Of a DNA stretch of 64,000 nucleotides, positions 58,301 to 64,000 are shown piece after piece. The stretch comes from Escherichia coli. GTDB lineage: Bacteria > Pseudomonadota > Gammaproteobacteria > Enterobacterales > Enterobacteriaceae. Made by a program: the position numbers. The DNA is taken from the NCBI RefSeq assembly GCF_002854065.1, contig NZ_CP024150.1; one strand, 5' to 3'. Every line of letters starts with the position of its first letter. Position 1 is the stretch's first letter.

Positions 58301-61300
58301 TTCGCACTGTCGCTGACGGAATGCCCGGGCGTTTCCACCCAGCCGTTCTCCAGCTTCAGTGCCATGAATGGTGAATCGCTCACAGGCAGGGAGGCCGGTT
58401 CAGCCCGCCCCGGCACAACAACCGTCATCGCATCTTCACTGACGGATGCCACCTGCAGGCGGTCACCGCCGGAGACGCGGAGTCCGGGAATTTTCCCTGT
58501 CACCCTCAGTCGCTCGCCGTCTGCCACCGGCATTTTTTCCGGCCGGAACAGCGACCAGCTGCTGTCCAGGGAGGAAATACGCACCACCTGCGTTTCATCC
58601 TGCGCATCCCGCAGGGTCAGGCTGTTACTCTGCGCCGTCACCCGGTCGATAACATAGCGGTCATGACTGCGTGTCTCCGGGTTCCACTGCTCCATCACCA
58701 TCCCCGGTCGGTACATATCCCGCAGATAACGGCTCCGGCTGTCCAGCCAGACCGGTGACAGGGCGGTCATGGTTACCTCCGGGTGTCCGAGCACGCCCTG
58801 TGTTTTCAGCTCACTGCGAATGGCCTGTGTCAGTATGGCCTGTTCCCGTACCCCGCTGACCTGTGCCACGCTCTCTTCTCCGGCTTTCACGCTGGCCGCA
58901 AAATCTCCGGCCAGCCGGTCATAGCGGACATTCCGGTCCGGTTCACTGATGATGGTTGCCGGTCGCTGTTCTCCGCCCTGCCAGCGATACGTGTTCACCC
59001 CGGCATCCTTCATGGCCATCAGCGCACTGCCTGTACCGGTTCGCTGCCCGCTGTCGGTTATCAGGACCTGTACGTTATGACGTGCGGCACCGTCCAGCAG
59101 GGTTAACGTCTCTTTCAGGGAGAGTTTTTCGCCCTGGTCAACGATAACGGTACTGCCCGGTGTGAAGGCCATACCCTCCAGCAGCTGACGACGTCCGGTT
59201 ATCAGCTCACCGGACAGCCGTTCATCCTGCTTCAGGTTCATCTGCGAACGACGGTCAGCAGCGATAATCTGCACCTCCCGCCCCTGCTCCCGGGCCATCA
59301 TGACCAGCTCCGCCACCCGCTCACGCTGCCCGGCTGCACCGCCCTGCCCGGACACAATGGCCAGCGACGGGCGATCCTGTGCCAGAACACTGACGGCATC
59401 GCTGTAACCGGCCGTCCGGGGGACACTTTTCTCCGGATGTACGGTCACCCGGTTCTGTTTCATGATGTCACGACTGAGTGCCCGGACTGACAGCTCATCG
59501 AGCACATGAATTCCTGATGTGAACAGCCCCTTCTCACGATCGAGGGGGATAAGCTGCTCACGGCTGATGGCCTCATCGATACCGGCGCGTGCCCGTTCAA
59601 TCACACCATTTTCCGGCGGCAGTATGCCGACCGTCCTGGCCAGCACGTCCGTGTACGTGAACTGCACTTTTCGTTCACTTAATCCGGCAATCGCCTGTGT
59701 CACCGCCTGCTGCACATCCGGCCCGTCCTGTGAAGCTGGCCCGGGCGCCTGCGTGCGGGTCTCCGCCCGTTGATCCGCCGCGTCACGATACGCCCGGATG
59801 TCGAACCCGGTTTCCTTCAGCGTCTGCATCCATTCAGCCATTCTGACTTCCGGATCGACGTGCTGTTTGGATTTACGCGTATCCAGTGCCGCCACATCCC
59901 GGGATTTCAGCGAGGCCCCTTCCCCGACGGCCTCCCTGATAGCCTGTGAACGACTGGAAAAGGCCTCCACCGGTACGCCCGGCATCTCCCACATACCGTG
60001 CTTACCGACCACTTCGGTTTCATAACCCAGCGCCTCAACGCGCTGACGTAACTCACTCTGATATATTTTCCCGAACGCAATCCGGTTCGCGAGCACGTTC
60101 TCGGAAAATCCGGTTTTCCCCACTTTGTCACTGCTCAGTGTCTTCCACTCGCCGTTATGCTGCGTGACATTAGCCACCACCACATGCGTGTGTAACTGTG
60201 GGTCCTGATCGCGACTGGTGTCATGGTTAAACAGTGCCATCACCAGATTACCGGTCAGCACCGTTTCTGACTGTCCGTCCGTCATCACCCGTGTGGAGGC
60301 CAGCGCCTCCACCTGACGGACAGCAAAATCCACGGCCTGGTTATGTGCATCAATAAGACGTTTATCCCCCCCGAGCATGGCCATCATGGAGACACTTTTG
60401 GGGGCGGAGAAGGTCAGGTCGTAGCCGGGACGATGCTTATTACTGCCATCCTGCATGCGGCTTAAATCCGCCCCGTCCGGCAGCCTGCCCTCCAGAAGAC
60501 GGGTAAAAACATCCTTATCGACGCTGCCCTGCAGCCCAAGCTGTTCAGCCCCCTGACCGGCCCAGCGTTCTCCCATGCTACCCAGCACATAGTAATTATC
60601 CTTGTCGGTGTAATAGTTTCCGGCACTGCCTGCCGATTTAACAACGCTGAAACTCAACATCAGAAATCATCTCCCGGCTCAACATCCTCCCCGCGCTCCC
60701 GGTGCACATTAATGTTCACCTCTTCACGACGCTGCATCTGCTGCTGGATGTCCGGATGATTTTCCTGTTGCCACGCCTCATAAGCGGCCATATCCACCAC
60801 TTCACCGGATTCACTGATCCCGGGTGGCAGTTGCTGTTCCATCTCTTCTTCCGGTTTCATGTTCAGCTCCTGCTCGCTCCCCCCTGCCGGAACACTCACA
60901 CCTGCATCTGACTTCTTATCATTGATGACAGAAGACACTGGCTGTTGTGGCTGTTGTGGCTGTTGTGGCTGTTGTGGCTGTTGTGGCTGTTGTGGCTGTT
61001 GTGGCTGTTGTGGCTGTTGTGGCTGTTGTGGCTGTTGTGGCTGTTGTGGCTGTTGTGGCTGTTGTGGCTGTTGTGGCTGTTGTGGCTGTTCAGCCTGAGT
61101 CACGCCTTCTCCGGAGGCAACCTCCGGTTCGAAGAGGCTGGCCATCTGGCGACCTTCTGCTTCCCTTGCAGCAAGTACGGCACTCAGACGGTTCTCCATT
61201 TCCGGGTTGATGTCACGCGGAATAAACTCCGGAGCGACCTTCGGTCGTGCCTGATATTTCAGAGAGAGTTTGACTGCCGGATACGGTCCGGGCAGAGTGA

Positions 61301-64000
61301 CATAGCAGGTCAGATCCGGCAGAGACTGAATGTCGGAATAACTGACCAGCGTCTGACGCTCCATATCCTTACCGGTCGATACCCCGTCACGTACCGGGTC
61401 AGCACCGTAGGAATACTGCTCGCTGGCTTTCAGGTGCTCTTTCTCACCAATTTCACCGGCAGCGAACTCTGCAATCTTATGGCTGGGAGAACGGAAAAAG
61501 GCACGGGTGTTCATGACGTCAAACAGCGTGGCCGCCGCTTTCTCACCGTAGATATCTTCCAGCTGGGCATAGGACTGGATACCAAACACATAACAGCCAC
61601 CGAACTTACGGGCTTCCGGCAGGATCTCCACCAGGTCCGGCAGTTTGTGTAACGTGGGTAACTCGTCACAGAAAAACCACACACGACGGTTACGGTTTTC
61701 TCCCATTGCCAGCAGACCACGAATGGCAATGGACAGCCACATGGAGATCACCGGCTTCAGGGAGGCATGGGTGAACGGTCATAAATCACCACCATATCAC
61801 CGCGCTGACGGGCGTAGTTGGCCAGACGACGGATATCCTCACAGGAGCATCGGGAGGGCGCCCCTGTGGCGCCCGTTCCCCGCTGCCTGTGGGCTGTTCA
61901 CCGCGCCCGGTAACGGGTCAGGCCGACCGTGGAATACCGCAGCCGTCGTCTTTTTGACGGCAAGGCTATGCCGCGAAAGCGGCTTGAAGGGCGCTCATCA
62001 GAAAAGGGCGACGGGCTGGCGTACACTGTCACCGACGCCAGCCGGGAGCGGTAAAAGCGCCCGTCCCGTGCCCGGCCGGACGCGGGACACTGACCACAGG
62101 CAGCGTTCCTGCCGCGCCGCGTCAGCCGGCGCAGTAAAAAGAGGAGCCCGGCGACATCTTTTGTTATCCGCCAAACAAAACCCAAAAACAACCCATACCA
62201 AGCCCAACAAAACACCAAAACAAGACAAATAATCATTGATTGATAGTTAAAATGGGGTAAACTTGACAAATAAACCCATTTAAAGCCCAAAACACACCCA
62301 AACAAACACCAAAAAAAACACCATAAGGAGTTTTATAAATGTTGGTATTCATTGATGACGGTTCAACAAACATCAAACTACAGTGGCAGGAAAGCGACGG
62401 AACAATTAAACAGCACATTAGCCCGAACAGCTTCAAACGCGAGTGGGCAGTTTCTTTTGGTGATAAAAAGGTCTTTAACTACACACTGAACGGCGAACAG
62501 TATTCATTTGATCCAATCAGCCCGGATGCTGTAGTCACAACCAATATCGCATGGCAATACAGCGACGTTAATGTCGTTGCGGTGCACCACGCCTTACTGA
62601 CCAGTGGTCTGCCGGTAAGCGAAGTGGATATTGTTTGCACACTTCCTCTGACAGAGTATTACGACAGGAATAACCAACCCAATACGGAAAATATTGAGCG
62701 TAAGAAAGCAAACTTCCGGAAAAAAATTACATTAAATGGTGGGGATACATTCACAATAAAAGATGTAAAAGTCATGCCTGAATCTATACCGGCAGGTTAT
62801 GAAGTTCTACAAGAACTGGATGAGTTAGATTCTTTATTAATTATAGATCTCGGGGGCACCACATTAGATATTTCTCAGGTAATGGGGAAATTATCGGGGA
62901 TCAGTAAAATATACGGAGACTCATCTCTTGGTGTATCTCTGGTCACATCTGCAGTAAAAGATGCCCTTTCTCTTGCGAGAACAAAAGGAAGTAGCTATCT
63001 TGCTGATGATATAATTATTCACAGAAAAGATAATAACTATCTGAAGCAACGAATTAATGATGAGAACAAAATATCAATAGTCACCGAAGCAATGAATGAA
63101 GCACTTCGTAAACTTGAGCAACGTGTATTAAATACACTCAATGAATTTTCTGGTTATACTCATGTTATGGTTATAGGTGGTGGCGCAGAATTAATATGCG
63201 ATGCAGTAAAAAAACACTCACAGATTCGTGATGAACGTTTTTTTAAAACCAATAACTCTCAATATGATTTAGTTAACGGTATGTATCTCATAGGTAATTA
63301 ATGATGGACAAGCGCAGAACCATTGCCTTTAAGCTAAATCCAGATGTAAATCAAACAGATAAAATTGTTTGTGATACACTGGACAGTATCCCGCAAGGGG
63401 AACGCAGCCGCCTTAACCGGGCTGCACTGACGGCAGGTCTGGCCTTATACAGACAAGATCCCAGGGCCCCTTTCCTTTTATGTGAACTGCTGACGAAAGA
63501 AACCACATTTTCAGATATCGTGAATATATTGAGATCGCTATTTCCAAAAGAGATGGCCGATTTAAATTCTTCAACAATCATTCAGTCCTCTTCACAATCG
63601 GAGCAAAAAAGTGATGAGGAGACAAAAAAGAATGCGATGAAGTTAATAAACTAATTAAATTATGATTGAGTTTCCTTTATCCACTATCAGGCTGGATAAA
63701 GGGAACTTAATCAAGTTATTTTATTGCCAGTCATTACATAAAATAAACAGGGTCGTTATTATGAAATAATTTCACGGAACTTATGAAAAAGTGGCTCCAA
63801 TAATCAAAATTGGTGAGTTCGCAATGTCTGGCAATAACGTTTTTGATGGGTTATTTGCCAGTCCGGATCGCCAGAATACGCATACTGTCAGGGCTGGGAA
63901 ACGATGCTCTCGGTTATTTACTGAAAAAAGGTGATATCACTGACGCAGAATACCGGGCGGCCCTGGAAATCGATCCCCGGCAGTCGATTTCTGTACACCT

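Follow-up and report, generated by a model that had tools for sequence, protein, structure and literature searches.

Virulence plasmids of Shigella such as pINV-Y394 have kept a truncated traD together with traI, traX and finO while the other tra genes were lost, and attempts at conjugation failed (PMC6489325). In pESBL, a hairpin 5′ of M.EcoGIX was described as a "class 3" single-stranded-DNA (ssDNA) promoter whose start was mapped by 5′ rapid amplification of cDNA ends (Wen et al. 2025; PMC12672017), and the class 3 promoter was named ssp3 in a 2026 preprint (bioRxiv 10.64898/2026.01.09.698686). Counterparts of both were analyzed here in a 64,000-nucleotide stretch of contig NZ_CP024150.1 from Escherichia coli (assembly GCF_002854065.1; "the window"), in which the 3′ part of traD stands next to traI, traX and finO on one side and to a GC-rich, strongly folding element on the other. 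Our data indicate that this gene set is very probably the deletion remnant of a decayed F-like (MOBF/MPF_F) conjugation module.

The deletions were defined against NZ_CP014112.1 (E. coli FDAARGOS_144 plasmid unnamed2), an F-like plasmid that is intact and conjugative and is typed as IncFIA/FIC, MOBF and MPF_F. On its par side this plasmid carries the microcin B17 (mcb) genes, an acyltransferase gene, parR-parM-parC and then a GC-rich segment; beyond the segment lies a leading region of about 19 kb (DUF1281, DNA methylase, antirestriction, ssb, psiB, psiA and hok), followed by the origin of transfer (oriT), traM through traD, traI, traX, finO, nuc and the IncFII repA. The window shares with it the order and orientation of mcb, acyltransferase, parR-parM-parC, the GC-rich hairpin element, traD-traI-traX, finO, nuc and IncFII repA, whereas only NZ_CP014112.1 keeps the leading region, oriT, traM through traT and a full traD (750 amino acids). 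Both flanks are collinear with the intact F-like backbone, in which the missing DNA is contiguous, and the identity is 99.9% for window 62700-61834 against the par side and 97.3% for traD′-traI-traX.

Relative to NZ_CP014112.1, the larger deletion amounts to approximately 44.96 kb (about 45 kb) and extends from the leading region, which is gone entirely, through oriT and traM-traT into the 5′ end of traD, while a second deletion removed 502 bp within traD. At the larger junction, the heptamers GAGGATA (Shine-Dalgarno region of DUF1281, a gene now lost) and GAGGTTA (traD) overlap; they agree at 6 of 7 bases, with a 2-bp exact match at the crossover. With the crossover written as a slash, the DUF1281 parent (ribosome-binding site and gene start) reads ...GTGAGGATA/ATTCCCATG, the traD parent ...GTCGGAGGTTA/TCCGTCGTC, and the window ...GTGAGGATATCCGTCGTC. 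At the 502-bp junction, the parents ...GACCGTTCA/GGGG and ...GCCGACA/CCCATG gave the window sequence ...GACCGTTCACCCATG, with a 2-bp (CA) microhomology. No insertion sequence (IS) element, long repeat or recombination site was found at either junction, the microhomology being only 2-7 bp, and both junctions lie in unique sequence. Both joins probably arose by illegitimate recombination, through either slippage or end joining. The first-pass annotation of the window had proposed one deletion of most of the tra operon that spared the relaxase and finO; the retention of these genes holds, and its suggestion to align 60660-62160 and the flanks to intact traD defined the endpoints (61834-61840 and inside traD), but the number and size had to be revised, as there are two deletions and the leading region and oriT were lost as well.

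What is left of traD consists of two pieces. Window 61773-60400 aligns with the traD of NZ_CP014112.1 from codon 390 on, and within it an open reading frame (ORF) of 363 codons, the figure given at first reading, runs from a GTG start at 61751 to 60660 on the minus strand, its stop codon overlapping the start of traI. The ORF encodes the Walker B motif, the all-alpha region, the C-terminal TraM-binding region and the QQP repeat. It covers only positions 397-735 of the NCBIfam model for F-type TraD, positions 1-396 being absent, and scores 702.8 bits against a cut-off of 1221. Since the match to the coupling-protein DNA-binding-domain model is confined to positions 223-387 of 387, the N-terminal membrane part and the Walker A part are missing, and an intact TraD coupling protein with membrane anchor and Walker A was not found in the window. 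The second piece, a 69-bp island that had been noticed earlier as an out-of-frame fragment of the TraD middle, is real; the loss of 502 bp between the two puts it in another frame than the 3′ remnant, and its reading soon meets a stop. The QQP repeat is encoded by a perfect 9-bp tandem repeat of 16.9 copies (60939-61090), and this tract is 27 bp (three units) longer in the window than in NZ_CP014112.1.

The nearest complete relative is NZ_AP027791.1 (p2017.06.05CC_1), a 109,780-bp IncFIA/FII plasmid of E. coli from human faeces in Viet Nam. Window 1-50312 is 99.99% identical to its positions 50310-1, window 51874-64000 is 99.7% identical to its positions 107147-95021, and the 2.2 kb that include both junctions (60400-62600) are 100% identical. 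RefSeq/PGAP annotates the traD remnant at the same place of NZ_AP027791.1 as a pseudogene with "missing N-terminus". The two plasmids therefore have the same deletion junctions and the same traD remnant, and they differ by an ISApl1 insertion and by 39 differences clustered in traI. The 1070-bp ISApl1 (107148-108217 of NZ_AP027791.1) corresponds to window position ~51874-51875, where the window is uninterrupted, and adjoins a Hha-family regulator gene and a partial regulator pseudogene. All 39 differences within the 12-kb tra/par block fall at traI 57164-58626, a 1.5-kb tract resembling a patch recombined in from a different F-like traI; the two plasmids have 40 versus 29 mismatches to the reference, and the recombinant may be either of them. 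The window thus comes from a sister plasmid of NZ_AP027791.1 that is distinct from that record. Since the same junction is found in a plasmid that was assembled independently and is set apart by ISApl1 and the traI mosaic patch, the deletion is old and inherited. Among 72,556 PLSDB plasmids and 5,426 complete E. coli genomes the join was found in only this one record. NZ_AP027791.1 also has, outside the window, an enterotoxin B-subunit gene and a microcin B17 operon (92406-93634) that is broken by IS2 and lacks part of the YcaO-like gene, the dehydrogenase gene and the McbB gene compared with NZ_CP014112.1.

Searches for the rest of the transfer system covered the window and the whole of NZ_AP027791.1. 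In tblastn with 25 F-type Tra proteins (E≤1e-3), only TraX, TraI and the two TraD pieces were matched. There was no tblastn match for the relaxosome accessory and regulatory proteins TraM, TraY and TraJ, and no tblastn or blastn match for the pilus and mating-pair genes traA, L, E, K, B, V, C, W, U, N, F, H and G in either sequence. A blastn search with the entire NZ_CP014112.1 returned no more than the retained backbone and short stretches of leading region that belong to another module. Short-word blastn with the F oriT (NZ_CP014112.1 59050-59420) gave no match in NZ_AP027791.1 and, in the window, only two 14-mers attributable to chance. These results agree with the initial observation that oriT, traM, traJ, traY and the pilus and mating-pair genes are absent from the window, and extend it to the nearest complete plasmid, the replicon on which the proposed whole-replicon check was run. 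Of a functional F-type (MOBF12/MPF_F) system, an intact TraI is present, and oriT, an intact TraD, the accessory genes and the pilus genes are not. The remnant would be unable to move DNA alone, because TraI has no F oriT to nick and because TraM, TraY, all pilus and secretion genes and a functional coupling protein are missing.

NZ_AP027791.1 has a different origin of transfer outside the window. This I-complex oriT consists of a ACATCCTG/T nick motif (slash, nick) and inverted repeats upstream of nikA, and it is accompanied by intact nikA and nikB with NikA-like and MobP relaxase domains, NikB being 71% identical to that of pESBL. The module lies at 9540-15843 within the segment 62000-109780 of NZ_AP027791.1, and is approximately 1.9 kb shorter than its counterpart in intact plasmids. 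It contains an ORF that fuses TrbA (1-292) to TrbC and a TrbC fragment that scores under the curated cut-off, and trbB and all tra/pil genes are absent from it. When 38 IncI1 transfer proteins of pESBL were compared with NZ_AP027791.1, only NikA, NikB, TrbC 118-724 and TrbA 1-292 matched; the weak matches (28-31%) of PilQ/R/N/T and TraJ were located in a type IVb pilus operon. An IncI-type (MPF_I) secretion system, with TraU/VirB4, TraJ, TraO/N/M/Y and intact TrbA/B/C, was not found in NZ_AP027791.1. MOB-suite labels this plasmid "conjugative, MPF_I", which is an over-call because the gene content includes no secretion system. In summary, the plasmid is most likely not self-transmissible, as judged for the window's own replicon from its relative. 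The first-pass annotation had called the plasmid probably non-conjugative, and this stands for self-transfer as far as gene content goes; it needs the qualification that, because nikA and nikB stand intact beside the I-complex oriT of NZ_AP027791.1, an IncI-type helper could mobilize that plasmid, and the window plasmid may possibly be mobilizable in the same way if it shares the oriT-nikAB known from its relative.

The retained genes were characterized by ORF listing and by Pfam and NCBIfam profiles, and their coordinates are given in the table together with those of the other features.

Table. Features of the remnant transfer region and its surroundings (coordinates in the window)
Feature	Coordinates	Strand	Description
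finO	53042-53602	-	186 amino acids, intact (ORF listing, tblastn, Pfam/NCBIfam)
alpha/beta hydrolase	53705-54565	-	between traX and finO
traX	54624-55370	-	248 amino acids, pilin acetylase, intact (tblastn, Pfam/NCBIfam)
traI	55390-60660	-	1756 amino acids, full-length F/R100-type relaxase-helicase
traD 3′ remnant	60660-61773	-	codons 390-750 of intact traD (alignment to NZ_CP014112.1)
traD island	61772-61840	-	69 bp, codons ~200-222 (traD nt 598-666; alignment to intact traD)
left junction of the ~45-kb deletion	61834-61840	-	from comparison of the flank sequences of both parents
GC-rich, strongly folding element	61834-62170	-	~337 bp, complete, native F-like backbone, non-coding
parC-like centromere/promoter region	62178-62317		two short A/C-rich repeat blocks, 94 bp apart, upstream of parM
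parM	62339-63301	+	ORF listing, RefSeq
parR	63301-63654	+	ORF listing, RefSeq

Every domain of TraI was found; the protein scores above the equivalog cut-offs and has the catalytic YY, the metal-binding motif HDTSRDQDPQLHTH and the Walker A motif GYAGVGKT, with 98% identity to the TraI of NZ_CP014112.1 across residues 1-1756. TraX and FinO, likewise F/R100-like, matched their models completely, the TraX start codon being the one chosen in RefSeq, so the first impression that TraI and TraX are full length and F-like was correct. The targets of FinO, finP and traJ, have been deleted. RefSeq describes the hydrolase as a quorum-quenching N-acyl-homoserine lactonase (AHL lactonase) of the UilS family. 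On the other side of the remnant, parM-parR form the right-hand boundary of the retained backbone and are collinear in NZ_CP014112.1, and the A/C-rich repeat blocks before parM (62178-62223 and 62272-62317) are consistent with parC.

The events that would lead to this arrangement can be reconstructed as follows. The ancestor would have had the order mcb - parRM - parC - hairpin element - leading region - oriT - traM...traT - traD - traI - traX - hydrolase - finO - nuc - repA(IncFII). A microhomology-mediated, illegitimate deletion of about 45 kb would have joined the ribosome-binding site of DUF1281, the first distal gene of the leading region, to traD codon ~200, and the 502-bp deletion in traD would have shifted the frame, presumably in that order. 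The remnant would then have been inherited passively with the IncFII/FIA replicon. A truncated traD with traI, traX and finO is ordinary, common and already annotated plasmid decay, and approximately 10% of the 5000 PLSDB records that best match traD/traI are typed as non-conjugative. Three points weigh against the decayed-module explanation. About 46 kb of the window's own replicon were unseen, and the absence of tra genes there is taken over from a relative that is 99.7-100% identical; MOB-suite types this relative as conjugative, although its gene content makes that not credible; and we infer the loss of self-transfer in vivo from gene content alone. If self-transfer was lost, the plasmid would spread by vertical inheritance or with helper plasmids. 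A plasmid lineage that bears toxin and pilus genes would thus have lost self-transfer through two microhomology deletions, which is useful to know for epidemiological typing, as automated tools call the nearest record "conjugative". Beyond annotation, the importance is small.

It is also conceivable that the remnant has been selected for a role in trans, with FinO repressing co-resident F-like plasmids, TraI acting on their oriT or the C-terminal fragment of TraD hindering their transfer. TraI, TraX and FinO are indeed full length and without frameshift even though the deletion predates the divergence of the two plasmids, the 1.5-kb mosaic patch shows exchange with other F-like traI genes, and the C-terminal 38 residues of R1 TraD are enough for TraM binding according to Beranek et al. 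2004 as cited in PMC6489325. However, a simple scan for consensus sigma-70 promoters on the minus strand from parC to traI found none, and no obvious ribosome-binding site for the 363-codon ORF was seen in the sequence. The two plasmids are also nearly identical, which leaves little time for decay, and the frameshifts in the same genes of Shigella pINV (PMC6489325) argue against general selection. A role in trans is therefore unlikely.

The first-pass annotation had called the GC-rich DNA that abuts parC unrelated. Instead, it is native F-like sequence and the normal neighbour of parC; the element is 100% identical to the DNA found there in all 30 F-like plasmids listed, and at least 5000 plasmids match it at 90% or more. 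For this reason the left end of the deletion is located at 61834-61840 and not at parC, and what appeared to be GC-rich "junk" is a conserved leading-region hairpin that marks the true deletion endpoint. In NZ_CP014112.1 a second copy, 95.7% identical, lies directly upstream of the DNA methylase gene. The two copies (7371-7693 and 8669-9005) are ~1.3 kb apart in direct orientation, and pESBL has only one. Between the element and pESBL-EA11 (NC_018659.1; 54442-54762), the identity is 95.4% over 323 nt, and the pESBL segment stops 20 nt short of the DNA methylase gene, which was taken as M.EcoGIX since that leading region has no other annotated DNA methylase.

As ssDNA, the element is predicted to fold with -95.8 kcal/mol (minus strand; z -4.9 versus shuffles) or -98.7 kcal/mol (plus strand; z -5.9), which is within the threshold of the published class 3 screen for stable stem-loops (below -75 kcal/mol per 300 nt). 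In pESBL-EA11, the 54442-54762 segment contains the only 300-nt intervals under -75 kcal/mol in the scanned region 53000-55300, which covers the methylase gene and the DNA upstream of it. One compensatory change, from G:C to A:T in a small stem, distinguishes the two copies of the element. From its position and predicted folding, the element most likely represents the outermost copy of the class 3 ssDNA promoter type. No convincingly placed -35 and -10 boxes were found when they were sought by eye in the hairpin. A classical Frpo/ssi (class 1) element was considered and rejected, as aligning the GC-rich DNA locally with ColIb-P9 Frpo1-3, F ssiD and F Frpo2 gave scores like those of dinucleotide shuffles (best z 3.6, not above the shuffle maximum); strings of the element were absent from the supplements of PMC11541004. 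The element was likewise rejected as the gene for an annotated "hypothetical protein". A 1-nt indel between the two copies puts the N-terminal halves in different frames, so the ORFs annotated on it are not conserved as proteins, and annotation pipelines put differing "hypothetical protein" ORFs on the class-3-type hairpin.

The identity of this element raises the possibility that the deletion fused a complete class-3-type ssDNA promoter hairpin directly to traD′-traI-traX-finO. The strand transferred from the I-complex oriT would have the template orientation, and TraI and FinO would be produced transiently on entry and act on resident F-like plasmids. If this were true, it would mean fertility inhibition or relaxase interference against the F-like plasmids of the recipient after mobilization by an IncI helper. 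We consider such expression on entry, which is proposed from sequence arrangement, to be very unlikely.

In terms of the origin of the block, a non-F plasmid could have gained traD′-traI-traX-finO as a fragment, and the mosaic replicon, with its many IS elements and modules of differing origin, would suit such a gain. The flanks, however, are F-like in the ancestral order and orientation, with mcb-parRM-hairpin on one side and finO-nuc-IncFII repA on the other, neither junction has an IS or a recombination site, and one deletion accounts for the join, which makes fragment gain extremely improbable. An assembly error is scarcely credible, for although F-like plasmids carry repeated copies of the ~330-bp hairpin element, a kind of sequence that can lead an assembler astray, NZ_AP027791.1, which is complete, circular and distinct in sequence from the window, has the same join at 100% identity, and the junctions are located outside repeats.

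Elsewhere in the window, a complete-looking type IVb pilus operon was observed at 27812-40975. It contains, in order, genes for the pilin (37345-38016, minus strand), a TcpQ-like protein, a secretin, a PilO2-like protein, an ATPase, a platform protein, a second ATPase, a prepilin peptidase and a lytic transglycosylase, together with a LuxR-type regulator. We take this gene order to resemble that of the bfp operon of enteropathogenic E. coli. The major pilin is a homolog of bundlin (BfpA), with E 1.2e-36 to PDB 1zwt.

In comparison with the known systems, the GC-rich element and the transfer remnant each differ from their closest counterparts. The class 3 promoter of pESBL precedes a methylase gene, while the element in the window, without its downstream gene, faces the traD remnant. 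In pINV-Y394, just 45 amino acids of TraD are left, with the C-terminus lacking, and traI is frameshifted (PMC6489325), in contrast to the window, where 370 C-terminal codons of traD are kept and traI is intact. The junctions of pINV and of the window arose independently.

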